A stretch of DNA of 64,000 nt from Myxococcales bacterium (GCA_019634385.1 JAHQVK010000123.1:1142-65141); one strand, 5' to 3'; positions 8,917-48,681 are shown, numbered from the stretch's first letter. Translations and numbers: made by a program. Notes: generated by a model from the letters alone, not told the origin.

Positions 8917-9104
8917 TAGGGCGTATCTTTAAACTCTGGCTGGGGAGATGACGCCGTATCCCGCGTTTGTGAAGGGTCGGCCCCCAGAGGAAGGGTACTG
9001 GATCTGCCGGGCCGAAGAGCCCGAAGGGTGGCGAAGCCACCGACCCCTCACATATGTGGGAAACAAGTCAGGACGCGGTCCGGAGGTTAAAGACACACCC
9101 TACA
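8917..9104. mobile_element. Family-A palindromic repeat element (MITE-like), copy A1
   Basis: It starts ctagggcgtatctttaaactctgg and ends ccggaggttaaagacacaccctac, so the two ends are inverted repeats of each other. The interior is an imperfect foldback. It is homologous to copies at 12635, 23023, 31383, 40743, 41222 and 48296. Confidence 0.85.
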
Positions 9105-10389
9105 CTAGTGCACGAAATGACGCTCTTGCTGTATCTATAGTGCGTTCTATATCTTCGGGGGTATGGGTAAAGGATACAAACCACGCCTCGTAACCCGAAG
9201 GAGGTAGATAGATACCCCGTTCTAGCATCGCATGGAACCATTGACCGAAGCGATTGTGGTCGCAGGCGGCAACGTCCTGGAAGTTGTGTACCGGACTGCC
9301 ATCGTTAAAGAACAGGGTGAGCATGGAACCGACCCGCTGAATACATGCGGTAATGCCGGCATCTTTGAGGGCTTCTTGCAGGCCATCTTCAAGGCTTTGG
9401 CAGGTCTTTTCGAGCTGATCGTACAGGTTTTGGTTTTCGAGACTCTTGAGGGTGGCTGTCCCTGCGGCTACGGCACATGGGTTCCCGCTTAGGGTTCCTG
9501 CCTGGTAAACGGGGCCAACGGGAGCTACCATGTCCATGATCTCGGCTCGTCCACCATACCCCCCCATGGGTAGGCCACCTCCAATAATTTTTCCGAAGCA
9601 AGTGAGGTCTGGGGTGATGCCTAAGAGCCCCTGAGCGCATTGGGGATGAACTCGGAAACCGGTCATGACTTCGTCGAAAATGAGAACAACCCCATGTTGG
9701 GTGCAGAGTTCCCTGAGGCGAGCATGGTAATTGGGTGATGGTTTAATGACCCCCATATTCCCGGATATGGGTTCGATGATTGCGCAGGCGAGCTCCGAAC
9801 CGCGCTCAGCGAAGAGCTCTTCGAGCTTGTCTATGTTGTTGTATGGCAGTGTGAGGGTTTGTTGAGCGAAGCTAGCGGGAACACCGGGGGAGTCTGGCAA
9901 GCCAAAGGTAGCTACGCCAGAGCCTGCTTTGACGAGCAGATAATCGGCGTGGCCGTGGTAGCAGCCTTCAAACTTTAGGATTGTTTCTCGTTGTGTATAT
10001 CCGCGTGCTACGCGGATCGCACTCATGCAGGCTTCGGTTCCGCTAGAAGTTAGGCGTAAGCGATCGACCGATGGCATTCGCTCCACTACCAGCTCCGCCA
10101 GTTTCACTTCGCCTTCTGTCGGGGCTCCGAAGCTTGAGCTACGTTTGATGGCATTGGTGGCTGCCTCTACGACATCCGGCGCAGCATGCCCAAGGATCAT
10201 TGGACCCCAGGATCCGACGTAGTCGATGAAACGATTGCCATCAACGTCCCATATATAGGCGCCTTCAGCTCGACTGATAAATGGGGGGGTTCCGCCAACA
10301 GCTCGGAACGCGCGAACTGGACTGTTGACGCCTCCGGGGATCACAGTTTGAGCGCGACGCATCAATTCAGCGGACCGTTCGGTTTTCAT
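9100..10389 (-). CDS. hemL: Glutamate-1-semialdehyde 2,1-aminomutase
   Basis: It carries ..VIPGGVNSPVRAFRAVGG.PPFI..G.YIWDVDGN.FIDYVGSWGP.ILGHA.., a class III aminotransferase and a HemL signature. The start is placed at MKTERS (10389). The stop codon lies inside the A1 terminus. Confidence 0.9.
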   Translation of the reverse strand: MKTERSAELMRRAQTVIPGGVNSPVRAFRAVGGTPPFISRAEGAYIWDVDGNRFIDYVGSWGPMILGHAAPDVVEAATNAIKRSSSFGAPTEGEVKLAELVVERMPSVDRLRLTSSGTEACMSAIRVARGYTQRETILKFEGCYHGHADYLLVKAGSGVATFGLPDSPGVPASFAQQTLTLPYNNIDKLEELFAERGSELACAIIEPISGNMGVIKPSPNYHARLRELCTQHGVVLIFDEVMTGFRVHPQCAQGLLGITPDLTCFGKIIGGGLPMGGYGGRAEIMDMVAPVGPVYQAGTLSGNPCAVAAGTATLKSLENQNLYDQLEKTCQSLEDGLQEALKDAGITACIQRVGSMLTLFFNDGSPVHNFQDVAACDHNRFGQWFHAMLERGIYLPPSGYEAWFVSFTHTPEDIERTIDTARASFRALV

Positions 10390-10514
10390 GGAGCACCAGC
10401 CTACTGCGTATTGGGGCCAGCGCGAAAGGAACAAGCGTTCGGAAGCGGCTTGGCGACGCATTCTTAGAGAAGGTAACGGACTCCTAAACGAAAATCTGGC
10501 AACTTAGATGAAAC

Positions 10515-11150
10515 ATGGCTGTTAGTACTGACCATGAACCGCAATCGGTCCAGGCCCTGGTGAACGCGGTTCGGTCTTTCCATAGCCGGGGGTGGACCCC
10601 GGCCACGAGCTCCAATTTTTCTTATCGTCCGGAGACCTCCACGCAATTTTGGGTTTCCCAATCTGGGGTGGACAAAGCGTACTTTGGGCCTGAACACCTG
10701 ATGTTGGTGGATTCACAAGGTGTGGCTGTGCCGCCGGAGAGCCGTCGTCCGTCAGCGGAAACAGGCCTTCATGCAATGATCTACGCGATGCGCCCACAGG
10801 CCCGCGCGGTCATCCATGTACATGCACCCCATTCGGTAGCTTATGCTCGTCTCTACCTGGTTGATGGAGCCGTTTGTATACAGGGTTGGGAACTGCAGAA
10901 AGGGTTACAAGGCGTGCATAGCCACACCGACGAAATATCGATCCCGGTGTATGAAAATTCCCAGGACATAGCGGCGCTCTCCTCGTATATCGGACCGCGG
11001 TTAGCAGCGGATCAAAGCAGTCATGCCTTTTTGTTAGCAGGGCATGGACTCTATGCATTTGGTTCCTCGGTTGCGGAAGCAAAACGACATGTGGAAGTGG
11101 TAGAGGGACTTTTAGAACAAGATTATCTTTGGAGGACACTCACCAAATGA
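10515..11150 (+). CDS. mtnB: Methylthioribulose-1-phosphate dehydratase (class II aldolase/adducin fold)
   Basis: It carries ..GWTPATSSNFSYR.. and HVHAPH metal-binding motifs. It lies upstream of mtnD and mtnC. Confidence 0.75.
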   Translation: MAVSTDHEPQSVQALVNAVRSFHSRGWTPATSSNFSYRPETSTQFWVSQSGVDKAYFGPEHLMLVDSQGVAVPPESRRPSAETGLHAMIYAMRPQARAVIHVHAPHSVAYARLYLVDGAVCIQGWELQKGLQGVHSHTDEISIPVYENSQDIAALSSYIGPRLAADQSSHAFLLAGHGLYAFGSSVAEAKRHVEVVEGLLEQDYLWRTLTK

Positions 11151-11695
11151 CGGTGCTAGAAATTCCCGGTAAAGACCGTTCGACAACTGATGAAGGCGAG
11201 ATTCGCCAATTTCTCAACGAGCGAGGCATTCTATTTGAGCGATGGGCCGCCAGTGTGCAACTAAGCTCGGATGCTTCACCCGCAGATGTTTTGGATGCCT
11301 ACGCGCACGAGCTTAAGCCTTACATGGAGGCTCATGGCTATCTGACCGCTGACGTTATTCGGATCCTCCCGACTATGGATGGACTCGATGCTGTTCGGGC
11401 GAAGTTCTTGGACGAGCATACTCACAGTGAGGATGAGATCCGATTCTTCGTTGAGGGGAAGGGTGCGTTTTGGTTTAACCTAGCCCGTACGCCCGCTGAT
11501 GAGGTCTTTTGTCTGATATGTGAGGCCGGCGATTTTATTAGCGTCCCTGCTGGGTTTAGGCACTGGTTTGATATGGGTGCGAGTCCGAAAGTAACCGCGA
11601 TACGCGTCTTCTCGAATAAAGAGGGATGGGTACCCCAGTACACTGACTCTGGTATCAGTCATCAATATAACAAACCTTATGAGGTCTCCCTTTGA
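11129..11695 (+). CDS. mtnD: Acireductone dioxygenase (ARD, cupin)
   Basis: It carries ..HTHSEDEIRFFVEGKGAFWF.., an ARD cupin motif. It overlaps mtnB by 22 nt. Confidence 0.75.
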   Translation: MEDTHQMTVLEIPGKDRSTTDEGEIRQFLNERGILFERWAASVQLSSDASPADVLDAYAHELKPYMEAHGYLTADVIRILPTMDGLDAVRAKFLDEHTHSEDEIRFFVEGKGAFWFNLARTPADEVFCLICEAGDFISVPAGFRHWFDMGASPKVTAIRVFSNKEGWVPQYTDSGISHQYNKPYEVSL

Positions 11696-12432
11696 TACCT
11701 ATTCCTGTCCGTGATGTATTGCTTGATATCGAGGGTACTACCTCCTCGATAAGCTTTGTTCACCGGGTGTTATTTCCTTATGCTCGGACCCATCTGCCAG
11801 CATTCATTCAAGAACACCACGGTGATCCCGCAGTGCAACGGGCGCTAGCTGCTGCTCAGGCGTCCCTTCGAGTTGACGGATGGCCATGTGATAGCCTTTC
11901 GGACCAGATAGGAGGCTTACTAAGATATATTGATGAGGATCGAAAAGACACTGGACTGAAAACGTTGCAAGGTATGTTGTGGCGCGTCGGCTACGAGCGG
12001 CAAGACTACCAGGGGCATATGTATTCCGATGTTTTACCAACCCTAAAACGGTGGCGTTCATATGGCTTGCGAGTATCCATCTATAGCTCTGGTTCTGTAG
12101 AGGCTCAAAAACTTATCTTTGGGTACTCCGAGTCAGGAGACCTGACCTCTTATATTCACAGTTATTTTGATACCCGAGTGGGACACAAACGGGAAGTTGG
12201 TTCATATCGAGCGATTGCCTTCGCCTTAGCTCGAGAGTCCTCGGAAATACTATTCCTGTCGGATACTCAAGAAGAGTTGTCCGCAGCGGCTGAGGCTGGA
12301 TTTTATACACTTCAGGTGGTCCGGGATGCCTCAACGGATGAGCTTGGTCCGCCAATGTTGGGAGCACCAGGGGCTTCACCCGCACCGATGGTGACTTCGA
12401 TCGCTCAGGCGGCAGAACTTTTGCGGGTCTGA
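11692..12432 (+). CDS. mtnC: Enolase-phosphatase E1 (HAD family)
   Basis: The N-terminus ..LLDIEGTTSSISFV.. is the HAD motif I DxxGT arrangement typical of MtnC. It overlaps mtnD by 4 nt. Confidence 0.75.
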   Translation: MIPIPVRDVLLDIEGTTSSISFVHRVLFPYARTHLPAFIQEHHGDPAVQRALAAAQASLRVDGWPCDSLSDQIGGLLRYIDEDRKDTGLKTLQGMLWRVGYERQDYQGHMYSDVLPTLKRWRSYGLRVSIYSSGSVEAQKLIFGYSESGDLTSYIHSYFDTRVGHKREVGSYRAIAFALARESSEILFLSDTQEELSAAAEAGFYTLQVVRDASTDELGPPMLGAPGASPAPMVTSIAQAAELLRV

Positions 12433-12634
12433 GCGAAACCGCGTATGTCCTTGAGGATACAGCAGAGATCACTTGGGTTAAGCCCCAGTGCCTGCTTCTT
12501 CGTGGGGCTATACCTCGCTGCGTGACCCCTTGTTGATTCTTACAGAATCAATGCAAGCGGTCTGTGCTGTAAGCTTCCGACTCCGGGTACTTCCAGATAC
12601 AGAAGATGTGTCGTTGCTGAGTTCTTATTTTCTC

Positions 12635-12821
12635 CTAGGCGTTTCTTCACCTTCCGGCGGCGGAGATGACGCGGTATCCCGCGTGTGTGAAGGTTTGTCC
12701 CCGGAGGAAGGGGGCTGGACGTACCGGACCGCGGGGCCCAAGAGGGTGGCGAAGCTACCGAGCCCGCACACATGTGGGAAACAAGTCAGAACGCGGTTCG
12801 GAGTCTGAAGACACGCCCTAA
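12635..12821. mobile_element. Family-A palindromic repeat element, copy A2
   Basis: ctaggcgtttcttcaccttccggcgg ... acaagtcagaacgcggttcggagtctgaagacacgccctaa. It has the same orientation as A1 and sits between convergent genes. Confidence 0.85.
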
Positions 12822-12866
12822 AGACGACAGTTTGGTGGATTGTTCTCTTACAACCTGCCACCAGGT

Positions 12867-14774
12867 TCAGCGACCAACGGAGTACTGTACAACCGGTTTG
12901 TCCTCGGCAAGTTCAACGGTACCTTTGTAGCGTACGTTACCATCTTCAAGCAGTTCGATCGGCAAGGATCCGCTGCCTCGACGTCGCTCGACCGCAACTG
13001 GAGTTGGATGAAGTAGGCGAACACCGTCCAGGCGAACCTCCATACCAGAAGGTACTGACCTAATCAGGACCAGACCTAGTCCTGGTACGGCTTCTCTGCG
13101 GTTGCTAAGCTCCATCTGGCGGAAGATTTTTTCTTGAGATGCTGCTCGAGCTCGTAGGCGGCCGACAACGGCACCAAATATGATGAAGCCAATCAAAATA
13201 CTAGCAACTCGCAAGGCGGCCTGTCGTCGCTGACGGTTTACACCGGACGGTTTTGTGTGACCGGGACGTAGGTGTCTCCGCCCAATGGGCGCCTTGTTGG
13301 TGAGCTGTTTCTTTTTTGGGGGTGCTGGCATGGCCGCAACCTTTGGTGTTGGTTTCTTTTTATCTGCATTTTCTGCTTTTTTGGCTACGGGAACGGGTAC
13401 CTTTTTCTCTTCCGGGGCTTTGGGTGATGCCTTGGCGGGGGGGGGCGGGCTCTTTACTTTGGGCGCGGGTGGCGTTGTGGGTTTCTCAGCCTTGGGGGAT
13501 TTCTCTTCCTTGGCGGGTTTTCCTGGTGTGGGAGCTGGATCTTTCGGTTTTGCCGGTTTAGGTGGGTTTGAGGGGGCGTTGTTGACCGGTTGATCAGCTA
13601 GAGATGGTGCTCGTTTGGTGCTACCGCGCGGTGGCTTTTTTGAGGGTGAACCCTTTGGTGTGAGTGAGGGTTTTTCAGACTCGCCCACACTCTGCATTTC
13701 CAGAACACCTGTACCACCACTTGCCTTAGCTGGAGTTTCGTTAGGCTTGAACAGACCACAAATGAACTCAGTGAGATCTGCACGGGTAACGAGGGCATTT
13801 TCAGCGCGGACCCAGTCCCCTAATATTTTGTCGAGCTCAAGAGCGGTCTGCGGCCGGGTTTTCTTCTCCTTGGAGAGTATCTTGAGGACGATTTTTTCCA
13901 GTGACTTTGGTACATTAGCGTTGACACTTGTCGGGGGGCTAACCTCCGCATTGCGCATAAGATTCAGGGTCGAGAAATCACTTGAGCCGGCAAAACAGCG
14001 CTCACCGACCAACATTTCATAAAGGACAATACCCGTATTGAAGATATCGGAACGTGCATCAACGGGCTGACCGCGTGCTTGTTCTGGGGACATGTACCCA
14101 TATTTGCCCTTGAGAATTCCGACTGCGGTTTGACTAACGATCGACGAGGCCTTCGCGATACCGAAGTCTACAATTTTTACTTCACCAACGTAACTAACCA
14201 GCACATTGTGCGGGCTCATGTCTCGATGCGTGATGTTTAAAGGCGCACCATCTCGGTCTGTTCGGGTGTGTGCGTAGGCTAAACCTTGGCAAACCTCTCT
14301 TGTGATGTGTACTGCGATCTCTGGTGGAATTTCCCTGCCGGCTAGTTGGGTCGCACGAATGACGTCAGACAGGTCTTTGCCTTCCACAAACTCCATGACG
14401 ATGAAGTATTCACCAACATCTGAAACACAAAGATCGTGTACTTGCACGATATTGGCACAATTCAGCGATGCGGCTAACTTCGCCTCATTGATGAACATCG
14501 TGATGAACGACTCGTCTTCGGTGAGGTGCGGCAAAATCTTTTTGACGCACACTTCCTTTTCGAAGCCCTGGAGGCCAGTGGTCCTCGCTCGATACACTTC
14601 GGCCATTCCACCCTTGGCGATCATTTCGAGAATTTCGAACTTCTTGACACTCAACTTCCTAAGTATCGGTAGAGATGCGTTTCGGGACAAGCATTCTGAA
14701 CCCTCTTCCCCAATCAGATGTTGCCGTCTAGCATACGCGTGTCGGCCATGACGGAATCTACGCCGAGCGAGCAA
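12867..14774 (-). CDS. Membrane-anchored Ser/Thr protein kinase (kinase domain, Pro/Lys-rich linker, TM helix, C-terminal PEGA-like domain)
   Basis: It has a Gly loop IAKGGMAEVY, VCVKK and DFGIA. The catalytic loop is HRDMSPHN. The low-complexity linker reads PKPAKPKDPAPTPGKPAKEEKSPKAEK... and the TM helix reads ALRVASILIGFIIFGAVVG. Start codon uncertain. Confidence 0.85.
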   Translation of the reverse strand: MLARRRFRHGRHAYARRQHLIGEEGSECLSRNASLPILRKLSVKKFEILEMIAKGGMAEVYRARTTGLQGFEKEVCVKKILPHLTEDESFITMFINEAKLAASLNCANIVQVHDLCVSDVGEYFIVMEFVEGKDLSDVIRATQLAGREIPPEIAVHITREVCQGLAYAHTRTDRDGAPLNITHRDMSPHNVLVSYVGEVKIVDFGIAKASSIVSQTAVGILKGKYGYMSPEQARGQPVDARSDIFNTGIVLYEMLVGERCFAGSSDFSTLNLMRNAEVSPPTSVNANVPKSLEKIVLKILSKEKKTRPQTALELDKILGDWVRAENALVTRADLTEFICGLFKPNETPAKASGGTGVLEMQSVGESEKPSLTPKGSPSKKPPRGSTKRAPSLADQPVNNAPSNPPKPAKPKDPAPTPGKPAKEEKSPKAEKPTTPPAPKVKSPPPPAKASPKAPEEKKVPVPVAKKAENADKKKPTPKVAAMPAPPKKKQLTNKAPIGRRHLRPGHTKPSGVNRQRRQAALRVASILIGFIIFGAVVGRLRARAASQEKIFRQMELSNRREAVPGLGLVLIRSVPSGMEVRLDGVRLLHPTPVAVERRRGSGSLPIELLEDGNVRYKGTVELAEDKPVVQYSVGR

Positions 14775-17700
14775 GAGATCGCTGCCTTACGAGCACAAGT
14801 GAACGCCGATACGAGATCGGAGGCGTTTGTTGATTTGGCTAAAGCGTTAAACGCGCAGGGCAAACACGAGGAAGCGGCCCAGATCGCTAACCAGGGTCTT
14901 TTGTCTCATCCTGACTTGGTTGAGGGAAGGATAGTCCTGGCGATTGCCGAATCCCGGCGAGGTCGAGTCAAAGAGGCGTTAGAGCAGATTCAGCGCGCGC
15001 TTCTTATCGATCAGAATAATGCGGTCGCGCTGGGGCTCATGGGAGAAATACTGCTCGATAGGGGCCTCGCTAAACGAGCAGCACAGTTCCTAGCGCACGC
15101 GGTGAAACTTGAGTCTGGCAACGAAGGGTTTAGAGAGCTTCTGGCCCGCGCCCGCCAAGCTATGGCGGATGTCAGTAAAGATGAAACTGGTGGTCCTCGG
15201 GTAGTAGCTAACAAGGTCAACCCACTGGGTTTGAGCTCCATCCCTAGTGAGGATAGCCCTTGGCCCTTGGAGGAAGCACAAACGGTGTTCGCCGCCAAAG
15301 CTGCGGATTCGGCATCGAATGGTCCTGCCGATGTGCCAGTTGCGCACCTTGCTGCCATACCAGAGGTTAGCAAGCAAGTGGTCGGTGGCGCCCAACAGGG
15401 GCTAGCCTCGCTGGTGTCAGGGGATGAAATTGCTGTTGATCACGCTGATGACGAACCGACGAAGTTTACGTCGGCGGTTCCAAAAAGGCGAGGGAAACTG
15501 GGAGGGAGCGCAGCTGAACTCTCGTTGATGATCAGCACGGGCAATGATCGAAGTAAGTCTAGCGTGCCCCCCCCGCAGGCTCCAAGTAAGCTGGCCGCGG
15601 AAGGATCAGGGCCAGCGAAGCCCAAAGCAAAGCCCAATGGGGTATCGGCTGGGCCTAAAACCCCTTCAGGTGAAGCGGGTGTCGGAAAGCCTCCTTCCCC
15701 AGCGAAGGGTCGGCCAGCGGTTGCAAAGGCGCCTGCAGTCCCGAGCAAGTCAAAGGCCGCAAAGGTCCCGCCACCCCCTCCGAAGCCAGAAGTTTCAGAT
15801 ACTTCTGCGTCTCCAAGCAAAGCAGGAGAGGCAAAGACGTCTGCAGGCAAAGCAGGCGCGGCAAAGACGTCTGCAGGCAAAGCAGGCGCGGCAAAAACGC
15901 CTGCAGGCAAAGCAGGCGCGGCAAAAACGCCTGCAGGCAAAGCAGGCGCGGCAAAGACGCCTGCAGGCAAAGCAGGCGCGGCAAAAACGCCTCTTGATCC
16001 TAGTAAATCGGGAGGGGCAAAAGAGCTCCCCAGTCCCGGCAAGGCGGCGGCTGCGAAACCGCCAGCAGCTTCTGCCAAGCCTGGGATTGCGGAGGTGCCA
16101 CCGGTCTCGAAAGCCCCCCCGCCGACACCGAGTAAACCTCCGGCTCCGACAGGAGATGAGGCTAAATCAACCCCAAAAAATAGTAGCGCTAAACCTAGTG
16201 CGGCTCCTGGACCCAAAATGAATGCTGTTGCTCAAGAAAATAAGCGCTCTCAAGACGAACCAGCCTCCGTAAATGGATTTGGACCAGTTGCTACGCGAAT
16301 GATCGATGACGCGCTCTTCGCGATCTTAGGTACCCCGCGGGAGGAGCTGGATAAACAACCGGCTCCAGCGGCTCCCGCAGAGGCGGCGCCGCTCGCTGGA
16401 GGGGCGCATATACTCAAGCCTCGAGTAGTGAGAACCAGCGCTAAACTGGGGTTTTGGGCACGGGTTGCGGGGGGGGTAGTCTTGTGTTCAAGCGCATTCG
16501 GTTTGGGGTATGCGGTTGCATTAGCTCCGGGTGCAGCCTCACCGGAGGTTGTCCGGGAAGAGATTAAAGGGGTTGCTGCAGAACTTGAAAGAGGCGGCTT
16601 GGCAGCCCTCCGAACCGCTGAGGAGCGAGTTCAGGTGCTGATTGAGTCGAATCCCAGCATTTCTCCCCTAATGAATGGCGTTCTAGCTGAGACCTTAGCG
16701 CGACGCTATGCGCGCTTCGGGCGCTCTGAGGAGTTGAGAACGAAGGCTATCGATGCACTTGAAGCCACAGGAGACGGGTACGTTAGTTTGGAGAAGACTG
16801 TGGCCCAAGTCCTGCTCTCTACGAGTACACAAGACCTTGCGCAGCTGGACAAGCAACTAGAGCTGTCGCTGAAAAGCTATGCCGACTCGCCCAAGGCGTG
16901 GGTGGCTCGGGCGGAGATCGCCCACCGTTCTGGAGACGCGGATGCAGCTATTTCTCATCTAACACAAGCTCGATCCATTCATCCCCAGCATCGGCAGACG
17001 CTCCTTGAAACCGCTCGATGGTTAGCGAGAGAGGGCGCGTTCGCATCCAGCTTAGAAACTTATGCCTTGCTGCAAAGTAACTCCGACCTCGATGTGGAGG
17101 TGGCGATCGAGCGATATCTGTTGGGATGGTCTACCGACGCTGACTCGGCCCATTCTGAGGCGGTTACTTTGCTAGCTGGGTTGGTACGGGAGACGATACC
17201 AGAAGTAGCACCAGACGAAGTCGGCCGAGCTGCGTTTGCTTTTGCTCTTGGGCACTTGTGGGAAGGTCGGATTGAAGAGGCGAATGCAAGCTTGCGCCAA
17301 GCCTCTCGGGCTTATCAACAAAGTGCAGCCTATCAGCAGATGATTGGACGCGTGTTTCTCGCGCTGGGGGAAGTTAAAGGGGCGGAGGCGTGCTTTACAA
17401 GAGCGACTGATGTGGAGCCGGATAGTGCCGAGTTGTGGATGGATAAAGCCCGTGCTCGATTTGCTCGGGCGCTCAAACTCCGACCGAGCCCAACAGCACT
17501 CGAGCGTCAGCTAGCGCGTGTTAGGGCCAACAAGTCCAAGGAGCGGTTGATGCTTCCCCTTGGGGAGGTGAGGGTACGCCCAACAGAGTTTGAGCTCGTG
17601 GAGGTTACGCTCGATCCGGCAGTCTTTAGGGAAGAAGACTATCTGCCGCTAAAAGAAGCCACTGCCCAAGAGGTATCGTTTGAGCAGGCTATGAAATCGC

Positions 17701-18491
17701 TGGTTGCATCAGCGGTGGCGCAGAAGGCCGTTGATTCGGGTGATCTCTCTAAGGCGAGACGTGTTGTAAAGCGGATGGCTGACAGAGATAATCAGATGTC
17801 ATCGATCGCGATAGCTAAGGGGCAATTGCTGCTGGCTGAGGGCAATTCGGATCAGGCGGTTCAACTCTTGGAATCGGCGGTAGATGGTGAGTCGTCGAGT
17901 ATATCTACCCTGGTGGCTTTGGCGCGAGCCCAAGTGGCGGCGGGCAATCTTAGGGGGGCCTTTGATGCCTACGAGCGGTTTTTTGATGCGGGCGGAAAGT
18001 CGACGGTTGCTCGCTTAGAATATGCTCGGCTGCAGAATGATAAAGGTGATCTTGAAGATGCGTTGGAGACCCTGGACCTTCTAGATACGGAGCAGCCAGA
18101 TAATGTTGCTAGCATGGTGCTACGTGCGGAATTGCATCTCGAACAAGATAAATATATTAAAGCACAAGCAACCATTCAGAAGGCGATAGAAGTGGATGCT
18201 AGGCTAGTAACTGGCCGTGCCCCTGAAGGGATTGATGAGCTGTCCCCCGAGTTTATTATGCAGATGGGTCGCATTGTCTTAAAAGATGATCGAAAGAAGG
18301 GCATGCGTTTGCTGAGGAACGCTGTTGAGCGCCCCGGGGCTCCGCCTAGTGTGCACTTCTTCTTAGGCAAGGCGTTGATGGCAAAGCGCAAAACTCGGCG
18401 AGCTGGGCGGCGATCGCTTCAGAAATATTTGGCTCTTGAACCAAGAGGATCTCATGCCGTTGAGGCTAAAAGACTAAGGCGACGAAGATGA
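14718..18491 (+). CDS. Large TPR-repeat protein (1257 aa) with a Pro/Ala/Lys-rich low-complexity region and a 10-aa tandem repeat
   Basis: There are many TPR units at both ends (..LGLMGEILLDRGLAKRAAQFLAHAVKLE.., ..AQATIQKAIEVDARL..). The central region is (AGKAGAAKTP)n. The true start may be MTEST at 14748. Confidence 0.65.
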   Translation: MLPSSIRVSAMTESTPSEQEIAALRAQVNADTRSEAFVDLAKALNAQGKHEEAAQIANQGLLSHPDLVEGRIVLAIAESRRGRVKEALEQIQRALLIDQNNAVALGLMGEILLDRGLAKRAAQFLAHAVKLESGNEGFRELLARARQAMADVSKDETGGPRVVANKVNPLGLSSIPSEDSPWPLEEAQTVFAAKAADSASNGPADVPVAHLAAIPEVSKQVVGGAQQGLASLVSGDEIAVDHADDEPTKFTSAVPKRRGKLGGSAAELSLMISTGNDRSKSSVPPPQAPSKLAAEGSGPAKPKAKPNGVSAGPKTPSGEAGVGKPPSPAKGRPAVAKAPAVPSKSKAAKVPPPPPKPEVSDTSASPSKAGEAKTSAGKAGAAKTSAGKAGAAKTPAGKAGAAKTPAGKAGAAKTPAGKAGAAKTPLDPSKSGGAKELPSPGKAAAAKPPAASAKPGIAEVPPVSKAPPPTPSKPPAPTGDEAKSTPKNSSAKPSAAPGPKMNAVAQENKRSQDEPASVNGFGPVATRMIDDALFAILGTPREELDKQPAPAAPAEAAPLAGGAHILKPRVVRTSAKLGFWARVAGGVVLCSSAFGLGYAVALAPGAASPEVVREEIKGVAAELERGGLAALRTAEERVQVLIESNPSISPLMNGVLAETLARRYARFGRSEELRTKAIDALEATGDGYVSLEKTVAQVLLSTSTQDLAQLDKQLELSLKSYADSPKAWVARAEIAHRSGDADAAISHLTQARSIHPQHRQTLLETARWLAREGAFASSLETYALLQSNSDLDVEVAIERYLLGWSTDADSAHSEAVTLLAGLVRETIPEVAPDEVGRAAFAFALGHLWEGRIEEANASLRQASRAYQQSAAYQQMIGRVFLALGEVKGAEACFTRATDVEPDSAELWMDKARARFARALKLRPSPTALERQLARVRANKSKERLMLPLGEVRVRPTEFELVEVTLDPAVFREEDYLPLKEATAQEVSFEQAMKSLVASAVAQKAVDSGDLSKARRVVKRMADRDNQMSSIAIAKGQLLLAEGNSDQAVQLLESAVDGESSSISTLVALARAQVAAGNLRGAFDAYERFFDAGGKSTVARLEYARLQNDKGDLEDALETLDLLDTEQPDNVASMVLRAELHLEQDKYIKAQATIQKAIEVDARLVTGRAPEGIDELSPEFIMQMGRIVLKDDRKKGMRLLRNAVERPGAPPSVHFFLGKALMAKRKTRRAGRRSLQKYLALEPRGSHAVEAKRLRRRR
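15811..15990. repeat. 30-bp tandem repeat, 5 perfect/near-perfect units plus one degenerate unit (ctgcaggcaaagcaggcgcggcaaaRacgY)
   Basis: Units at 15841, 15871, 15901, 15931 and 15961 with a degenerate copy at 15811. They encode (S/P)AGKAGAAKT and differ only at wobble positions. Confidence 0.9.
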
Positions 18492-23022: not shown

Positions 23023-23182
23023 CTAGGCGTGTCTTTTACCCTTCGGACCGCGTTCTGACTTGTATCCCACATTTGTGAGGGGTCGGTGGCTTGGCCACCC
23101 TTTCGGGCTCGGAGGGAGGGTACATCCTCTACCCTCTCTCCGAGCCTGAACCCTAACAAACGGGGGCTACGGCGTAATCTAG
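23023..23182. mobile_element. Family-A element, copy A3 (inverted relative to A1; right end truncated)
   Basis: ctaggcgtgtcttttacccttcggaccgcgttctgacttgtatcccacatttgtgaggggtcggtggctt... ending ..ctacggcgtaatctag. Confidence 0.8.
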
Positions 23183-23253
23183 CTCTACGCCGACTTCAAA
23201 GCACCAAACCATTGTGCCCTCCTTGTAATCACGGGATCGTTGGACACCGACAC

Positions 23254-23432
23254 CTAGCAGGCCATCGGAAAAGTGAGTTAAGCGCTTCGCGGGTCCTTTT
23301 TCCGTGGAAGGTCTGGACTGGCTTCGCCTTTCATCGGTTGCATACGCCCGCTATGCGCCCTCTTCATCCAGAGCGTTCCACGGAAAAGATACTTCGCGGA
23401 TCACCCATCCCACTTTTCCGATGGCCTGCTAG
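23254..23432. mobile_element. Family-B palindromic repeat element, copy B1
   Basis: ctagcaggccatcggaaaagtg ... cacttttccgatggcctgctag, with perfect 22-bp inverted ends. It is homologous to copies at 41046 and 48121. Confidence 0.85.
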
Positions 23433-23769
23433 TGGACAAGGATTGGTATTGCTCTGTGAATGATAAGCCTCTTGGGGGACAGCTGATAGACAACAGATTC
23501 AGCAGGAAGGTTATGCCCAGCCTCGTCGTCGGAGCGTTTCACGCAAAGCCGGGCTCGATAGCCACACACATGGCTAAATCAACCGGCTGCTAGGGAGCGT
23601 CATGAATGTTGGCATGGAGCTATTGTGAAGTATCTGGTTTGACCGAATGTAATGGTAGCGATTGCCTAGCTGACCGAGAGCTCCCGATAAGCGAGTCACC
23701 GAGAGCTCAACGGGGCCTTCAGGCAAATCACTGACGACTCATAGACCGAGTTCTATGTTAAAGATATGC

Positions 23770-30620: not shown

Positions 30621-31382
30621 TGCGGGGCCTCTTTCTCTTCACGCTTGTTACTCACCACGGGACCTCTTGTAGGCTTGCTTGAGGTACATGGGGTTTACAA
30701 ACTTGTGTTTCATTGTCTTGGTTTGTGACAAACCGAGTGATGCGGCATGGTGCATAGGCTGAAACATTCGCCACTCTTTCGAGTGGGGGGCTTTCTCCGG
30801 ACAACAGCGCACTATTTGCCGAAGCATCATGTAGGGTCAACAAACCACTCGAACCAATACATTCCGTTAGCGAGATATTGTCGAGTGTGGTGGATAGGGG
30901 CGTATGAGTGACGAGGTTGCTTCTCTCGCTCCTTCTCGCCAGTAAATCTATCATCCCAGAGAGATCATCAGACGCCTTACCCGTGCTGATGGCAACAATA
31001 TCGGCGCAGACGTTGTTAAACTCTTGGTTGATACCCGGTTTAACAGTACCCAGTGATCTATGGAGATGTGGGTTATTGTATTCTTTTTGTTCGAGGGTGT
31101 GGTGTAATGACCTTTGTTGCCTGCGAATTACCGCGATGTTCTGATTGGTGAAGCAGAGAAACCAACGAAATAGGAGTAGGTGTGGGGATTCTGCGAAAGG
31201 CTGCGGTGATTCTGCACCCATGGTCTTCACAATAGCGGCCCCAAAGGAGGTCGACAACTGTTCAGAGGGTAAACGCCTGGTTGGTTTGTTGGGGTGTATT
31301 AAAGCAACTCAAGCACTCGACTCGGGTGCTAGAATGCCCAGGGGCGAAGCGTGTCCGCCCCACTGGTTAAGTCACAACCTAG

Positions 31383-31570
31383 CTAGGGCGTCTCTTTAAG
31401 CTCCGGCCCGCGTATTGACTTGTTTCCTGCGTTTGTGAGGGGTTGGTGGCTTCGCCGCCCTCTCGGTCCCCTCGGCCGGGTACATCCAGTACCTTCCCTC
31501 CGAGGCTGACTCCTCACAAACGTGGGCTTTGGCGTCATCTCCCCAGCCGGAGGGTAAAGACACGCCCTAG
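31383..31570. mobile_element. Family-A element, copy A5 (orientation as A3)
   Basis: ctagggcgtctctttaagctccggcccgcgt ... ccggagggtaaagacacgccctag. It is preceded by an extra ctag. Confidence 0.85.
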
Positions 31571-35595: not shown

Positions 35596-36026
35596 ATGTG
35601 TGGGCAAACCAAGAGAACCGCTGGACTTGAGTCCAAGGGCCGGTTCGTTCTTCGCTTTGCGACCACTGGCTGACGTGAGAGCACCGAGAGGAATACTACC
35701 TTGGTGTTGCTCATAGTCTTGTGCGGGTTTGGACTTAAGCTAAACCATTTGGTATTCTGTTCTAGCTGTGTCTTTAACGGCAGAAGTGATTGATAATGGT
35801 TCCCTGATTTACCTGAGTGTTTTGCTTCGGGGAATGTTGACCATAACTAGCATGCTGACAAGCCAGGGTGGGTCGTCGCTCGATGAATATTTGGATGCCT
35901 CGGAGGTTCAACAGACCCTTCGCGAAGTTTTGTAACTCATCCTAGCAGGCATGTGATGACCGAACGACTGTACCCTTTGCAGCCTTTTTGTTGAAGATAC
36001 GCCAAAGCCACTTGAATTGATTCTGT

Positions 36027-36112
36027 AAGAATCAACAAGAGGTCGCGCAGCGGGGTATAGCCCGGCGTAGAAGCAGGAACTTGGGTTCAAGCCAAGTGAT
36101 TTCTGCTGTACT
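36027..36112. repeat. Family-C structured repeat, copy C1
   Basis: agaatcaacaagaggtcgcgcagcggggtatagcccggcgtagaagcaggaacttgggttcaagccaagtgatttctgctgta is about 85% identical to 41748-41836. It contains nested hairpins: AGCAG..CTTGGgttcaagCCAAG..CTGCT. Confidence 0.7.
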
Positions 36113-36134
36113 ATGGCGTGTCCTCAAACGCGGG

Positions 36135-36206
36135 CTGCGGAGCTGACGCCGTATCCCGGATGTGTGAGGGGTTGGCGCCGGAGGGAGGGGTAAAGACAGG
36201 CCTTAG
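36135..36206. mobile_element. Family-A element, internally deleted copy A4 (about 72 bp)
   Basis: gcggagctgacgccgtatcccggatgtgtgaggggttgg joins directly to cgccggagggaggggtaaagacaggccttag. Its terminal tta (reverse complement taa) is the stop codon of the downstream gene. Confidence 0.7.
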
Positions 36207-39847: not shown

Positions 39848-39961
39848 GGGGTGTCACTCCGCAAAGGTCGTGCCGAAATGCTACAGCAGGAGGAGTTTAG
39901 GCCTCTTTCCGATTTCCGGAATGGGACCTGACGAGGCCGGTTGGTTGAACCAAGACACGCC

Positions 39962-40702
39962 CTAGATGAATTGGCGATCGAGTGCTATCGCCCGTTCAAG
40001 TCGTTTGAGGTAGACGGCTCGAGGTACTTCTTCGGCCCCTAGGGAGAGCATGTGGCTTGTAGCCTGCTGAATATCCAACAGTACAAAGCCTTTGTCTCGG
40101 AGTCGTTCAACGAGATACACCACCGCTGTTTTTGATGCATCAGAGCATCGAGAGAACATTGACTCCCCAGCGAAGAAACCGCCTATTGCCACCCCATAGA
40201 GCCCCCCCACGAGCTTTCCGTTCTTCCAGCTCTCGACGGAGTGAGCATGACCCGCTTTGTGCAGATGAATGTAGGCCGTCGCCAGCTCGTCGGTAATCCA
40301 TGTTGTTGGCCGGTCGGGAGCGATAGCTGCACACTGAGTAACAACGTCGCTGAAAGCGGTATTAAACCGCACCTCGAAGGTTTTCCGGCGAATCGTCCTC
40401 GCTAAGGAGCGGGATACGTGCAGCTGGTCTAGCTCCAAAACTGCCCTAGGGTCCGGGGAGAACCAGGTCATCAGGTCTTCGGCAAATATAGGCCATGGGA
40501 AGATACCCCGCTGGTAGGCCACCAGAAGGCGGTCAATGGAAAGATCCCCGCCAATGGCAACCAGACCATCAGCCGAGGCCGTCTCGGGTGGGGGGAAGGC
40601 AAGTTCGCTGGTCAAAATCGCGACCACGGGGGGATTGTTGCTGCCTGGACACTCCAGGTCGAGTCTCCTCTTTTTGATGTTCAATTTCGTGTGGGTGTGC
40701 AA
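39962..40702 (-). CDS. aat: Leucyl/phenylalanyl-tRNA--protein transferase
   Basis: It carries ..LLVAYQRGIFPWP.....WFSPDPRAVL.. and ..GESMFS.., the Aat family signature. The start is probably internal or non-ATG. Confidence 0.8.
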   Translation of the reverse strand: MHTHTKLNIKKRRLDLECPGSNNPPVVAILTSELAFPPPETASADGLVAIGGDLSIDRLLVAYQRGIFPWPIFAEDLMTWFSPDPRAVLELDQLHVSRSLARTIRRKTFEVRFNTAFSDVVTQCAAIAPDRPTTWITDELATAYIHLHKAGHAHSVESWKNGKLVGGLYGVAIGGFFAGESMFSRCSDASKTAVVYLVERLRDKGFVLLDIQQATSHMLSLGAEEVPRAVYLKRLERAIALDRQFI

Positions 40703-40742
40703 GGAACCCTTTTCACGACAGCCTGAGTCGGCTTCGTTCTAG

Positions 40743-40929
40743 CTAGGGCGTGTCTTCAAACTCCGGACCGCGTTCTGAATTGTATCCCTCATTTGTGAGG
40801 GGTTGGTGGCTTCGCCCCCTTTTGGGCTCCTCGGTTAGGTACATTCCGTACCCTCCCTCCGGGGCCTACCGTTCACAAATGCGGGATACGGTGCCATCTC
40901 CGCCGCCGGAGTTTGAAGCCACGCCCTAG
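40743..40929. mobile_element. Family-A element, copy A6
   Basis: ctagggcgtgtcttcaaactccgg ... ccggagtttgaagccacgccctag, a near-perfect 24-bp terminal inverted repeat. It is preceded by an extra ctag. Confidence 0.9.
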
Positions 40930-41045
40930 ATAAATTTATGACTGCTATTGGTTTTTCGTGCCCACGTTGCTGCTGACTCGCTTCGGTTACGTCTGCGGAT
41001 ATGTGTTCTCTTGGCGTGAACACGGAGGCCTACTGGCTAGCAGGC

Positions 41046-41225
41046 CATCGGAAAAGTGGGAGGGGTGATCCGCGAAGTATCTTTTCCGTGGAACGCTCTG
41101 GATGAAGAGGGCGCATACCGGGCGTATGCAACCGATGAAAGGCGAAGCCGGTCCGGACGTTCCACGGAAAAAGGACCCGCGAAGCGCTTAACTCACTTTT
41201 CCGATGGCCTGCTGGGGCGTGCCTT
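41046..41225. mobile_element. Family-B element, copy B2 (inverted relative to B1)
   Basis: ctagcaggccatcggaaaagtgggagggg ... cacttttccgatggcctgctgg. Its 3' end runs directly into A7. Confidence 0.85.
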
Positions 41226-41399: not shown

Positions 41400-41591
41400 A
41401 AGCTTATCGATGCACACCGGCTGGTCTGGGCTACGAGGGTTGGGTGAGATATTTATCCCTATAATACTCTTCGGGCTGAATAAGATTGGCCATGGATCGA
41501 CAGGCTCGTTTCCCTCAAGCATATCTTTATGGCCAACCTGGAACTATTGCGAAGTACCAGGTTTGGTAGTGCCCCTCCTCCGTGGCCGGAT

Positions 41592-41648
41592 CCTTACACA
41601 CGCGGGATACGGCGTCATCTCCCCCGCCGGAGGGTAAAGACACGTCTG
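41592..41648. mobile_element. Family-A solo half-element (right arm only), A9
   Basis: ccttacacacgcgggatacggcgtcatctcccccgccggagggtaaagacacgtct matches the right-hand 57 bp of A5 and A7. Confidence 0.65.
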
Positions 41649-41747
41649 GTGAAGACAGAGGCGGTCAAGTTGTAGTGACAGATAGTGATGCACGAAGGCA
41701 TTCTAGAGCTAGAATATGCATACAAATGTGTCTACAGCAAAGCCCAC

Positions 41748-41836
41748 TTGGTTAGAATCACCAAGTGGTCGCGCAGGGGGGCATAGACCGGCGTAGAAGC
41801 AGGCACTTGGGTCCAACCCAAGTGATTTCTGCTGTA
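41748..41836. repeat. Family-C structured repeat, copy C2
   Basis: agaatcaccaagtggtcgcgcaggggggcatagaccggcgtagaagcaggcacttgggtccaacccaagtgatttctgctgta. Confidence 0.7.
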
Positions 41837-41877
41837 TTTGCTTGCGCTGGTTGCTAGCTTTGTGAGAGCGCACAAGT

Positions 41878-42243: not shown

Positions 42244-42326
42244 TATTGAGTTGTAGAGCTGCGTTCGGTCCTTGGCTAGCTTAAGTTTCACAATGCCGAA
42301 TTCTATGAATATAGAACTGATGAACA

Positions 42327-43874: not shown

Positions 43875-44029
43875 AAGGTCAAAGAGAGATATATGCGCCT
43901 GTAAAAATATGCATTTAGCGACTATTGTGATGGTTGGCACCTCAACTAAGACCGCTTTTCGAAGCTAAAACGATTTTCGGAGTTGGTTCTGGGCTAGACA
44001 ACCATGCGCTAGCGTCATGAGTTGCTGCA

Positions 44030-44806: not shown

Positions 44807-44824
44807 GCTCATCACAATGGAACT

Positions 44825-45625: not shown

Positions 45626-45657
45626 ACGGTTGGTTTTGAACTGGAAGGCTAGGTACC

Positions 45658-46920
45658 ATGACCTTGCCGCCCCCCCCACCTTTGGGCTGGATAATGGTAA
45701 CTTCACGCCTGGTGAGGCGACTTGAGGAAAAGATTCGGATCGGAATCGTCGGCCTGGGCTCTGTCGGTCAGGATATGGCTCGTGCAGCTCTGGAAGATAA
45801 ACGGGTCCGTTTGGTGGGGGTTACCGATAGGGATCGGATCAAAGCGGGACGGGATCTGGGTGAAATTATCGGTGAAGGACGAGTCGGGGTCCGCGTTGAT
45901 AGTCAGATTGAGTCGATGTTGAGCCGGGCTCGTCCCGAGGTTGCGGTGGTGACGACTACGTCGGAGCTCTCGGGCTTGGGTGACACCTTAGAGAGTTGTC
46001 TTAAGTATGGCGCACACGTGGTCACTTCCTGTGAAAACTTGGCTGACACTGAACAGGCTCTTCCCATTCTTCCCGAGGGGATTGATGAGCGAGCTCGAGA
46101 GGCAGGCATAGTTATTCTTGCAACCGGAGTTAATCCCGGTTTTGCGATGGATCGCTTGCCGGTTATGTTGGCGCAAGCCACCCGTAACATACGCAGAATT
46201 CGGGTCGCAAGGGTTGTTAATGCTTCTTCTCGCCGAGCGCAGCTTCAGGCCAAAATTGGGGTGGGTAGGCATCCATCTGAATTTGCGGAAGGTATACGGG
46301 AAGGGCGGCTGGGGCATTCTGGTTTGACGGCAAGCTTGCGTTTGGTTGCCAAAGGTCTCGGGCTGACTTTGGAGAAAACGGCGGAGGCTTTTTCGCCGGT
46401 TATAGCTGCCCACACCATGTCCTCTACCCTCGGTGAAGTGCCGCCGGGACGGGTACGAGGTATCTATCAGATCGCGCGAGGTTATCGCGCGAATAGGGAA
46501 ATGATCACCCTGGAGCTGACTATGGCTCTGGGAGAATCTAAGCCCCGAGATACCATCGATATTGTGGGTGAGCCACCTATTCACTTTGAGGGTGAGCTAG
46601 CCGGCGAAGAATGTACAGTAGCGACTATTCTCTCCGCGATTTCAGTGGTTGTAAACATGCAGCCTGGCCTGCGAAGTGTGCTGGATGTTCCGCTGGAGCA
46701 GCCAGAGGAACCGCTGGAGTCTTCACCAGCCAAGCGCAATATGGTACTGCCGGGCGCGGCGAGGCTTGAGCGGGGGGCCTCCTCGGTCAGACATCGTAAA
46801 CGAAGAGCCCCCATTCGGAAGGGGCATCACATTCCGATGGAGCGAAAGATAGCTCTACGCAAGCGGGCTGCGGAGAGGTTCAAGGCTCGCCGAGGTGCCA
46901 ATCGTGGACACCAAGAATGA
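45658..46920 (+). CDS. NAD(P)-binding DapB-like oxidoreductase (dihydrodipicolinate-reductase / amine-dehydrogenase fold) with basic C-terminal tail
   Basis: The Rossmann region is ..IRIGIVGLGSVGQDMARAAL.. followed by ..VVTTTSEL..AHVVTSCENL.. The C-terminus ..RKRRAPIRKGHH..RKRAAERFKARRGANRGHQE is unusual. Confidence 0.55.
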   Translation: MTLPPPPPLGWIMVTSRLVRRLEEKIRIGIVGLGSVGQDMARAALEDKRVRLVGVTDRDRIKAGRDLGEIIGEGRVGVRVDSQIESMLSRARPEVAVVTTTSELSGLGDTLESCLKYGAHVVTSCENLADTEQALPILPEGIDERAREAGIVILATGVNPGFAMDRLPVMLAQATRNIRRIRVARVVNASSRRAQLQAKIGVGRHPSEFAEGIREGRLGHSGLTASLRLVAKGLGLTLEKTAEAFSPVIAAHTMSSTLGEVPPGRVRGIYQIARGYRANREMITLELTMALGESKPRDTIDIVGEPPIHFEGELAGEECTVATILSAISVVVNMQPGLRSVLDVPLEQPEEPLESSPAKRNMVLPGAARLERGASSVRHRKRRAPIRKGHHIPMERKIALRKRAAERFKARRGANRGHQE

Positions 46921-47392
46921 TGGACCAAAATCCACGTGGGCAGATTGCCTTATTCGTACGCTTTTTAAAGTTGGTCACCCAGTGTACAGAAGGTTAAAAC
47001 CCTTCCTGTTTCCTATAACCCGCGGATCATGCCTGGCCATTTGGTGTCAAGGGCAGGTATTGGTCATAAAAAATTCCTACCTTCCATATTACTCTTTTCC
47101 AGGAGGTGGCATCGCCCCGGGTGAACAACCGCTGGTGGCGGCCGTTCGTGAATGTTTCGAGGAAGTAGGTATTCGGACTGCACCGGAGCACGTTAAACTC
47201 GACTTTGTGGAGGAGCTGCGATGGAAAAACACCCTGGATACGGTGTGGGTCTATCACGTCCGCCTCGAGAAGTGGCCAGATGTGCGTATCGACAATCGAG
47301 AAGTTATTTCTGCGTCTTTCATGGACCCATCAACGGCGTTGCGACATCGGCTGTTTCCGCCGGTCCGAAAGCACATTGAGCGCCGCGTGTAG
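46895..47392 (+). CDS. NUDIX hydrolase
   Basis: The Nudix box is ..FPGGGIAPGEQPLVAAVRECFEEVGI.. Start uncertain. Confidence 0.65.
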   Translation: MPIVDTKNDGPKSTWADCLIRTLFKVGHPVYRRLKPFLFPITRGSCLAIWCQGQVLVIKNSYLPYYSFPGGGIAPGEQPLVAAVRECFEEVGIRTAPEHVKLDFVEELRWKNTLDTVWVYHVRLEKWPDVRIDNREVISASFMDPSTALRHRLFPPVRKHIERRV

Positions 47393-47425
47393 TTACCGGC
47401 TGCATTATCAGAGGTCGTTTTAGTT

Positions 47426-47800
47426 ATGGATAGTAGTATTTTCGCGCGGCGACGCTTCATGATCCTCTCCGGGGTGCTGTTAAACGGCGTGCTAGCCCTG
47501 ACTACGGCGTGGATGGTAGAATCAGACCGTCCCACAATTGAAGCCTCATTTGCGTCTGGTTTGCCGTCCGATATGTTGGTCATCCGAAATCAACAAGCAA
47601 AAACGAAGGTGGAACTTGTGTTGGACAACCGATACGTCCTACGGCTCGCTGAGTTCAGTGCGGGCATGCACGGAATTGATGTTCAGCAAGCATTTCGGGA
47701 CAAAGAGCACCTGACCCCAGACTCGGGATATGTACCTCGACATCTACGAATAATATTTCAGGATGGGGAAGAAGAAATAGTGGTTCAAGAGGAGCCCTGA
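47426..47800 (+). CDS. Hypothetical small exported protein
   Basis: An N-terminal signal/TM segment (RRRFMILSGVLLNGVLALTTAWM) is followed by an acidic C-terminus. Confidence 0.35.
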   Translation: MDSSIFARRRFMILSGVLLNGVLALTTAWMVESDRPTIEASFASGLPSDMLVIRNQQAKTKVELVLDNRYVLRLAEFSAGMHGIDVQQAFRDKEHLTPDSGYVPRHLRIIFQDGEEEIVVQEEP

Positions 47801-48120
47801 CAGCTGGTTGATTTGGCGGCGTGGTTATAAGTTGACGGTTGGCTTCCGCGGGACGCGAATTAAAGAATTTCGGGCGTATACTGGCGATCAACGGTGCAGG
47901 AGACCAGAAATCCCGCCGGATGGTTGTTGGCCAAACCAACCGGCTACTATTGGGGTGTAGGCTTGTTAGTTGCGCATCCTAGGTGTGTTGCTCTTTGCGC
48001 CAAAGAACTATCGCGAACAGCCAGGAGAACCGGAATATTTTGTTTCGGGGGAGGTTCGTCTCAGCTAGCGGAGGAGATTCGGGGGGGACCGTGTTACCGG
48101 GCATTCTGGTACTTGATGAA

Positions 48121-48299
48121 CTAGCAGGCCATCGGAAAAGTGAGATGGGTGATCCGCGAAGTATCTTTTCCGCGGACCGCTCCGGATGAAGAGGGCGCAT
48201 ACCGGGCGTATGCAACCGATGAAAGGCGAAGCCGGTCCAGACCTTCCCCGGAAAAAGGGCGAGCGAAGCGCCTAACTCACTTTTCCGGTGGCCTGCTAG
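48121..48299. mobile_element. Family-B element, copy B3 (orientation as B2)
   Basis: ctagcaggccatcggaaaagtgagatgggtgatccgcgaag ... cacttttccggtggcctgctag. Its terminal CTAG is shared with A8. Confidence 0.85.
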
Positions 48300-48681
48300 G
48301 GCGTGTCTTTAACCTCCGGCGGCGGAAATGACGCCGTATCCCGTGTCTGTGAGGGGTCGGTCACGGAGAGGGAGGGTACGGGGTGTACCGCCGCCCTTGA
48401 GCTGGATGCCTCTTGCCTGGGCTGCTCGAGAGGGCGATGATGGGATTCTGTCTGCACCCGGCCCGGTGCGCATTGATGTTCCCGCGGAGCAACGCGGGTT
48501 CCCGGCGGTGGCTTGCCGCCGTCGGCCAGGAGAAACGAAGCGTGAGAGTTGAAATGGCTCGTGGTGGCGGTCCGCTGCTGTGGCCGGGGCCGAGGGGCCC
48601 GAAAGGTGTCGAAGTCTCCGACCTCTCACAGGCGCAGAAAACAAGTCAGAACGCGGTCCGGAGGCTAAAGACACGCGCTAA
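48296..48681. mobile_element. Family-A element, long variant A8 (386 bp, with about 190 bp of extra internal sequence)
   Basis: The left arm is ctagggcgtgtctttaacctccggcgg cggaaatgacgccgtatcccgtgtctgtgaggggtcgg and the right arm is ...acaggcgcagaaaacaagtcagaacgcggtccggaggctaaagacacgcgctaa. The internal segment 48390-48620 is absent from other copies. Confidence 0.75.

Follow-up and report, generated by a model that had tools for sequence, protein, structure and literature searches.

The 64,000-nucleotide stretch of a Myxococcales bacterium genome analyzed here (GCA_019634385.1, JAHQVK010000123.1:1142–65141; hereafter the window) carries between its genes a family of short fold-back repeats that we call family A. 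An earlier note on this DNA, made from the sequence alone, had described a short, nonautonomous fold-back family bounded by terminal inverted repeats (TIRs) and inserting at CTAG, and that description holds: the termini match those of IS5-family insertion sequences (ISs), the flanks of the copies are mutually unrelated, and syntenic sites in a relative are empty. Family A very probably consists of noncoding MITEs (miniature inverted-repeat transposable elements) carrying IS5-type, IS427-group-like ends, mobilized in trans into the TA of YTAR/CTAG sites.

Nine family A loci are present in the window: six full-length copies, one split copy, one internally deleted copy, and one half copy. All nine loci listed in the earlier note were recovered by blastn with the copy at 31383–31570 as the query, but the copy placed there at 41222 begins at 41212/41213. 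The same copy is the reference for our identity figures; the other loci are 72 to 84% identical to it, and the mean column identity of the family alignment is 80 to 83%. The 24-mer CTAGGGCGTGTCTTTAAGCTCCGG has eight matches at three or fewer mismatches in the window and none in 100 shuffles. Excluding the flanking TA, the copies are 179 to 182 bp long with TIRs of 20 to 24 bp, and their frames are short and unrelated to transposases. In the coordinates that follow, the flanking TA is included. On the minus strand, a full-length copy at 8917–9102 (182 bp plus TA on each side) lies between the convergent genes for a Ser/Thr kinase and hemL, the hemL stop TAG (9100–9102, minus strand) being formed by the TA and the terminal base of the element, and a second full-length copy (12636–12820) lies between convergent HAD-hydrolase and kinase genes, 76 bp from a copy of another repeat, family C. 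The copy at 23024–~23206 (plus strand, between dsbD-like and cpn60 genes) is intact at its left end, and its right terminus is degenerate (…GACTTCAAAGCAC). The reference copy (31384–31569) and the copy at 40744–40928, both full length on the plus strand, have CTAGC just before them; the latter has GTCTTCAAACTCCGG-type termini at both ends, the form nearest to the termini found in other organisms. The locus at 36112–36205 (minus strand), listed earlier as a fragment at 36135, still has its two termini and is an internally deleted derivative, not an end fragment; it measures about 90 to 94 bp and comprises the left terminus and consensus positions 110–188. Its TA and terminal base form the stop TAA (36203–36205) of a DUF255/YyaL-like gene, and it adjoins a family C copy at the junction 36110/36111. 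A full-length copy with decayed ends (the left flank reads TG for TA, and the right end is degenerate) occupies 41213–~41398 on the plus strand and directly adjoins a copy of a third repeat, family B, at 41037–41216, and a right-half fragment (consensus positions ~115–182) follows at 41577–41647, also on the plus strand. In the last copy (48297–48680, minus strand), the whole element is present but interrupted at its center by 198 bp of inserted sequence (48390–48587), and the copy adjoins the family B copy at 48121–48299 at a common CTAG; the insert lacks a TIR and any inverted or direct repeats, occurs only once in the window, and matches nothing in the fetched loci.

The intergenic placement claimed in the earlier note is borne out, as no copy overlaps a Pfam-supported gene except at the two stop codons. 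Convergent genes border three of the host gaps (kinase/hemL, HAD hydrolase/kinase, and amino-acid kinase/DUF255), same-strand genes border three more, and the seventh, which holds the reference copy, is bordered by open reading frames (ORFs) without Pfam support. Two ORFs that overlap family A copies (23086–23463 and 48309–48674) match no Pfam family and are likely to be spurious. With 163 occurrences against 245 expected, CTAG is slightly underrepresented in the window, yet it is common within genes, so the intergenic-only distribution reflects survival rather than a shortage of targets. Of eight window copies, six are bordered by TA on both sides. On the left, the next base outward is C, T, or G; on the right, it is G. 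In independent insertions elsewhere the outer bases are unequal, with CTA…TAA around an IS of Gloeothece (L014) and TTA…TAA around a MITE of an Opitutaceae genome (L005). Because these bases differ between the two sides, a 2-bp TA duplication within YTAR fits better than a 4-bp duplication of CTAG, which we dropped given the unequal outer bases in several independent insertions. A 7-bp direct repeat, CTAGTGT, at the copy next to hemL (8916) was also dropped as a candidate duplication, being absent from every other copy.

The earlier note had the element supplying the stop codons of hemL and of the YyaL-like gene, which is literally so, as each stop consists of the TA and the first base of the element. 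Since the element starts with G (TA+G), a stop would be rebuilt after insertion into the TA of TAG or TAA, and hemL of a syntenic relative (L003) also terminates in TAG; the stops of hemL, of the DUF255 gene, and of a Leu/Phe-tRNA protein transferase gene are best explained as insertions into the TA of an existing stop. The third of these is formed by the TAG of a solo terminus, CTAGGGCGTGTCTT (39952–39965, minus strand, 14 of 14 positions), which has no partner and is probably a remnant. The presence of CTAGCTAGGG at three copies, noted earlier, was confirmed, and the window's only three CTAGCTAG octamers (8912–8919, 31379–31386, and 40739–40746) all lie at family A termini, with about 0.4 expected by chance; they could reflect an extended target preference or the footprint of an earlier insertion and excision.

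A pointer to the origin of the family comes from its terminus, whose first ~20 bp (CTAGGGCGTGTCTT[C/T]AA.C; further short forms of this type of end are GGGCGTGTCTTCAAAC and GGGCGTGTCTT) match the ends of IS5-family ISs of about 0.9 kb. An IS5- or IS630-like IS with the same inverted ends had been anticipated, and IS5-family ISs with such ends were indeed found, both on plasmids of Nostoc and Gloeothece and in metagenomes. The cyanobacterial ISs, together with an Embleya record, came from a terminus-doublet query against plasmids. The IS on pNFSY07 of Nostoc flagelliforme (L015) is 905 bp long with CTAGGGCGTGTTTTCAAACT at both ends, equal to the terminus of the copy at 40743 at about 20 of 21 positions, and that of Gloeothece PCC 7822 (L014), about 917 bp long and annotated as "IS5 family transposase," has the same terminus at its ends. 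The two overlapping ORFs of these ISs match NCBIfam NF033580 transpos_IS5_3 (E = 2e-42 and 8e-37) as well as Pfam DUF4096 and DDE_Tnp_1. Among 7,413 candidate homologues of this transposase at E ≤ 0.001, three from metagenomes were fetched; they are 60 to 64% identical to the query, and each lies between CTAGGG[C/T][G/C]T.T..GCAAA ends; L014, L015, and the metagenome ISs L016–L024 all start and finish with CTAGGG.(G/C)T.T…CAAA. In size, two-ORF frameshift layout, and 2-bp duplication, the features on which we base the label "IS427-group-like" (families being assigned with NCBIfam and Pfam), the partner IS type resembles the IS427 group of the IS5 family, whose published members, 832 to 865 bp long, contain two overlapping ORFs with a frameshift and, for 12 of the 13 ISs listed, show direct repeats of 2 bp (PMC3281130). 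ISs of this group (IS1248, ISPpa2, and ISPaes1; PMC3281130) and those of Nostoc and Gloeothece share with family A the terminus CTAGGGCGTGT.T.CAAAC and the 2-bp TA duplication. These ISs are autonomous elements of 0.83 to 0.92 kb that encode a transposase, whereas family A shares only their first 20 to 24 bp and encodes nothing. In four of the metagenome loci (L016, at 1465–3117, and L017, L018, and L019), next after the IS5_3-type transposase gene comes an SMI1_KNR4-family gene and then terminus-like sequence; an IS carrying this second gene as a passenger was considered and dropped, as the left flanks differ and the right flanks are identical past the putative right end.

The same evidence bears on two other possible parents. 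Descent from the IS630/Tc1-mariner superfamily would suit the TA flanks within CTAG-like sites, as IS630 is reported to insert at the TA in 5'-CTAG-3' (Tenzen & Ohtsubo 1991, as cited in PMC2170065). The feature is, however, common to the IS427 group, whose ISs also make 2-bp duplications, and it does not discriminate; we consider an IS630 parent highly improbable because each transposase gene flanked by the same terminus is IS5-type (transpos_IS5_3, DUF4096 and DDE_Tnp_1). A likeness to REPINs had also been proposed; these are REP doublets moved by a RAYT (Y1, IS200/IS605-like) transposase. REPINs and REP sequences are, like family A, abundant, palindromic, and extragenic, and one metagenome locus (L007) is a bare terminus–terminus doublet of about 55 bp. 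They differ in mobilizing enzyme and end structure: the ends of family A belong to DDE-type IS5 elements with their own transposase, and TA duplications flank the copies. The L007 doublet is moreover the sole REPIN-sized object seen, and 182 bp is far above it; no RAYT gene was noticed near any copy, though no systematic RAYT search was made. The proposed likeness is thus unsupported, and we find a REPIN-type origin scarcely credible.

Beyond complete ISs, the terminus recurs on short elements in distant organisms. A degenerate form of its pattern matches at least two contigs of an Opitutaceae metagenome-assembled genome (MAG) and six metagenome contigs, where the terminus bounds elements of about 55, 130, 180, and 295 bp whose interiors are unlike that of family A; the Embleya record has the terminus at 12 places, including a MITE of about 190 bp. 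In two metagenome contigs, Ga0209724_1006064 and Ga0123336_10002890, a pair of termini bounds a unit of about 1 kb (L011, 6418–7424; L012, 13652–14629) that is unlike family A in its interior and holds no transposase but a 242-aa, Cys-rich ORF whose signal peptide is lipoprotein-like; this unit may be a small cargo cassette with MITE-type ends, or two solo ends may flank the gene by chance. An apparent interior homology between family A and the Embleya and Opitutaceae MITEs was abandoned when the CCCTTCGGGCTCCTCG-like shared stretch failed in alignment. The 23-bp end TAGGGCGTGTCTTCAAACTCCGG is near-identical in short elements of Myxococcota, Verrucomicrobiota, and Actinomycetota and on several unassigned metagenome contigs, and these ends are closer to one another than to any sampled IS end. 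One may imagine a single horizontally spreading IS427-type transposase lineage, or a domesticated host copy of it, driving a cross-phylum superfamily of MITEs and cargo elements whose hairpin is weakly selected; this seems to us unlikely. If true, the hairpin would be kept because it aids mobilization or helps neighboring transcripts.

Within its own genome, family A is dispersed. A profile built from the translated open frame of several copies, searched for small ORFs, returned eight, all from "MAG: Myxococcales bacterium" (four with KTR25_ tags, the others as NCBI records), and no match from any other organism. The HemL protein of the window is 100% identical to one of this MAG. One of the eight ORFs is the window copy at 8916, and seven are on other contigs of the same MAG, the eight contigs measuring 73.9, 68.6 (the window's own), 8.3, 28.1, 25.4, 19.3, 31.6, and 25.1 kb. 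The corresponding proteins (P0241–P0248; 59 to 87 aa), annotated as "hypothetical proteins," are translated family A copies, some reading into family B, and are annotation artefacts; P0247 passes directly from the end of a family A copy into family B, giving a third junction between the two. The earlier note had named two outcomes that would undo its reading, a family confined to this locus and copies that are fragments of an IS or prophage, and neither obtains. Local segmental duplication, or fragmentation of a larger IS or prophage, might be suggested by the clustering of copies at 40.7–41.6 kb and by the way the three families A, B, and C adjoin. Both are already refuted by the dispersal of copies whose ends are discrete and constant: the flanks are unrelated, the copies occur on at least eight contigs, and every unit has the same two boundaries. 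The copies are not IS or prophage fragments because only the terminal 20 to 24 bp match ISs, and nothing among the viral contigs of the phage collection matches the terminus pattern.

The family appears to be restricted to a narrow lineage and to be old. The internal 23-mer TGTGAGGGKTYGGTGGCTTSGCC, present in five of seven window copies, was scanned as an exact pattern and has no match among 185,579 species genomes or in the JGI metagenomes, so the family A interior is absent from both collections, neither of which includes the source genome; full-length family A and family B queries gave only chance-level matches against plasmids. Relatives with 82 to 84% HemL identity include a 6-Mb ENA genome (L002) and a syntenic Logan contig (L003). 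Three relatives have no family A copy in 43 kb, and the orthologous gaps of L003 measure 13 and 3 bp, against 208 and 434 bp in the window, where they hold family A copies. With the relatives lacking copies and the syntenic sites empty, we conclude that family A expanded after the split from these relatives. The spread of copies at 72 to 84% identity to the reference, a divergence of about 20%, indicates that the burst is old. A short-read Logan contig of the same locus (SRR12681089) starts in a family C copy and stops 61 nt inside the family A copy beside hemL; it breaks at these points because multicopy repeats do so to assemblies.

The fold-back structure is real, although it is less regular than first described. 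The copy at 31384–31569 has a predicted folding energy of −96.5 kcal/mol against −66 ± 4.4 for shuffled sequences (z = −6.9); instead of the continuous hairpin of about 90 bp per arm in the earlier note, only the outer ~62 nt of one arm pair with those of the other, and the central ~60 nt fold separately into local hairpins. Covariation maintaining the hairpin, which that note had proposed to look for, is weak and without strand bias in our small sample of seven copies and 62 consensus pairs, to which the relatedness of the copies adds a caveat. Paired cells make up 90.1%, compared with 88.6 ± 0.5% when partners are shuffled, from which it follows that the structure is almost entirely inherited; the covariation term of the alignment fold (alifold) is unfavorable (+5.19), and G-U and A-C cells number 19 and 14, showing no strand preference. 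We read the hairpin as a palindrome inherited from the founder, with weak maintenance at most.

The structure could, on the other hand, be the point of the elements: they might be functional structured RNAs or DNA hairpins under selection, with mobility secondary, serving as terminators or attenuators, as RNase III or RNase E sites, or as stabilizers of mRNA 3' ends. Such a role would agree with the very stable fold, with the position of three of the seven host loci between convergent genes, and with a slight excess of double-sided changes, considered below. It agrees poorly with the near-complete inheritance of the pairing and the unfavorable covariation term, with the lack of strand preference, with the occurrence of copies in both orientations, and with the decayed ends of the copies at 41213 and 23024. 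No terminator-like stem with a T tract lies in, at the edge of, or after any family A copy, which leaves the terminator role suggested earlier unsupported, and no copy has an Rfam match at the gathering threshold or at E ≤ 1. Roles as terminator, RNase III site, or promoter find no support in the sequence, and we regard a primarily functional hairpin as very unlikely.

This returns us to IS5-type MITEs. Bacterial MITEs are defined as small elements, generally under 200 to 400 bp, with no transposase gene (PMC3184786), and family A is such a family in its size, lack of a transposase, TIRs, TA flanks, dispersed copies, and empty syntenic sites. The repeat family and its ends, the TA flanks, the genomic dispersal, the empty orthologous sites, and the match of the ends to IS5-type ISs are matters of observation, and from them we infer mobilization in trans by an IS5-type transposase and the absence of any host function. 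A transposase of the two-ORF, frameshifted DDE type (transpos_IS5_3), encoded elsewhere in the genome or since lost, would have bound both ends of the element in trans and moved or copied it into the TA of YTAR/CTAG sites, duplicating the TA. Copies would have persisted only where they are harmless, in intergenic DNA, notably between convergent genes, or in the TA of a stop codon, where the first G of the element would restore the stop, and the long hairpin would be mostly a legacy of the palindromic founder.

Several points weigh against this interpretation. The cognate transposase was not found in this genome, the search covering the window: as stated earlier, the window has no transposase, which we confirmed for the IS5_3 type (tblastn, 121 queries, best E 0.07), other transposase families not having been screened systematically. 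The ends of the sampled ISs have the form …T(T/G)CAAAC…, beyond which they diverge, whereas MITE ends from four phyla share the longer …CTTCAAACTCCGG, and an exact partner IS with …CTTCAAACTCCGG-type ends was not found among the sampled ISs. CTAG being palindromic, the TA could formally be part of the inverted repeat, and this interpretation does not account for CTAGCTAG recurring at three termini. Finally, double-sided changes in the hairpin number nine cells where 3.5 ± 1.6 are expected, a count that none of 500 shuffles reaches, which leaves room for some selection on the hairpin.

The window contains two other repeat families. Family B is a fold-back element of about 180 bp with ends CTAGCAGGCCATCGGAAAAGTG…CACTTTTCCGATGGCCTGCTAG, and its three copies (23254–23432, 41037–41216, and 48121–48299) are 92 to 97% identical; two of the three adjoin a family A end at a common CTAG. 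Family B is younger than family A and inserted at the CTAG of family A ends. Family C, about 103 bp long, forms two small hairpins and occurs at 12458–12560, 36008–36110, and 41751–41837; the last two copies contain terminator-like sites, a stem with a T-rich tail. A 38-bp part of it recurs three times in one intergenic region of L002 (5591–5628, 5685–5722, and 5822–5859; 82% HemL identity), so that family C, unlike family A, extends beyond this MAG. A degenerate unit of about 245 bp at 35762–36007 (plus strand), with the A-like termini CTAGCTGTGTCTTTAACGG … GTTGAAGATACGCCAAAG and an interior unrelated to family A, is tentative, as its right terminus has five mismatches, at which level base-shuffled windows give ~2.5 matches, and its left terminus was picked by eye. 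In the same gap as this unit and a family C copy, CCTAGCAGGCATG at 35942–35955 resembles a family B terminus, and the gap as a whole (35.6–36.2 kb) looks like a graveyard of several element types. Elsewhere in the window, the hemL ORF spans 453 aa, with the real start 24 codons downstream, and a tandem repeat of three ~60-bp units, 88 to 93% identical, lies at 15808–15992 inside a 1,257-aa ORF (14718–18491).

Among known systems, MITEPsy1 of Pseudomonas syringae pv. phaseolicola (PMC3189936) is a close counterpart, a short noncoding element with IS5-family TIRs and multiple dispersed copies that, like family A, inserts at CTAG/YTAA-type sites with a short duplication. MITEPsy1 is 100 bp long, makes a 4-nt duplication, derives from the IS5-group element ISPsy2 in the same genome, and is experimentally mobile (PMC3189936), whereas family A is about 182 bp long with a 2-bp TA duplication and IS427-group-like ends, its copies are old and diverged, and the two have no sequence similarity. 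The Correia elements (NEMIS) of Neisseria and the ERIC sequences of enterobacteria resemble family A as intergenic, TIR-bounded MITEs of 100 to 200 bp that form long hairpins (Delihas 2011, PMC3184786); the hosts differ, no relationship in sequence is expected, and Correia elements carry documented promoters and IHF sites (PMC3184786), features not shown for family A. In the searchable literature we found no report of MITEs in myxobacteria, and searching for the terminus string brought up only unrelated primers and aptamers. The sequence of family A is thus new and previously uncatalogued, while the kind of element is well known, an ordinary genomic parasite.

These findings leave the current understanding of mobile DNA unchanged, and their consequences are largely practical. 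Family A gives rise to false "hypothetical protein" entries, of which the MAG's NCBI annotation has at least eight, its elements sit on the stop codons of real genes, and, together with family C, it breaks short-read assemblies; the terminus signature CTAGGGCGTGTCTT[C/T]AAAC can in turn be used for finding related MITEs and ISs across phyla. For the biology of the organism, family A records a burst of an IS427-type MITE in a marine-type lineage of uncultured myxobacteria, and at least one further family, B, came later.

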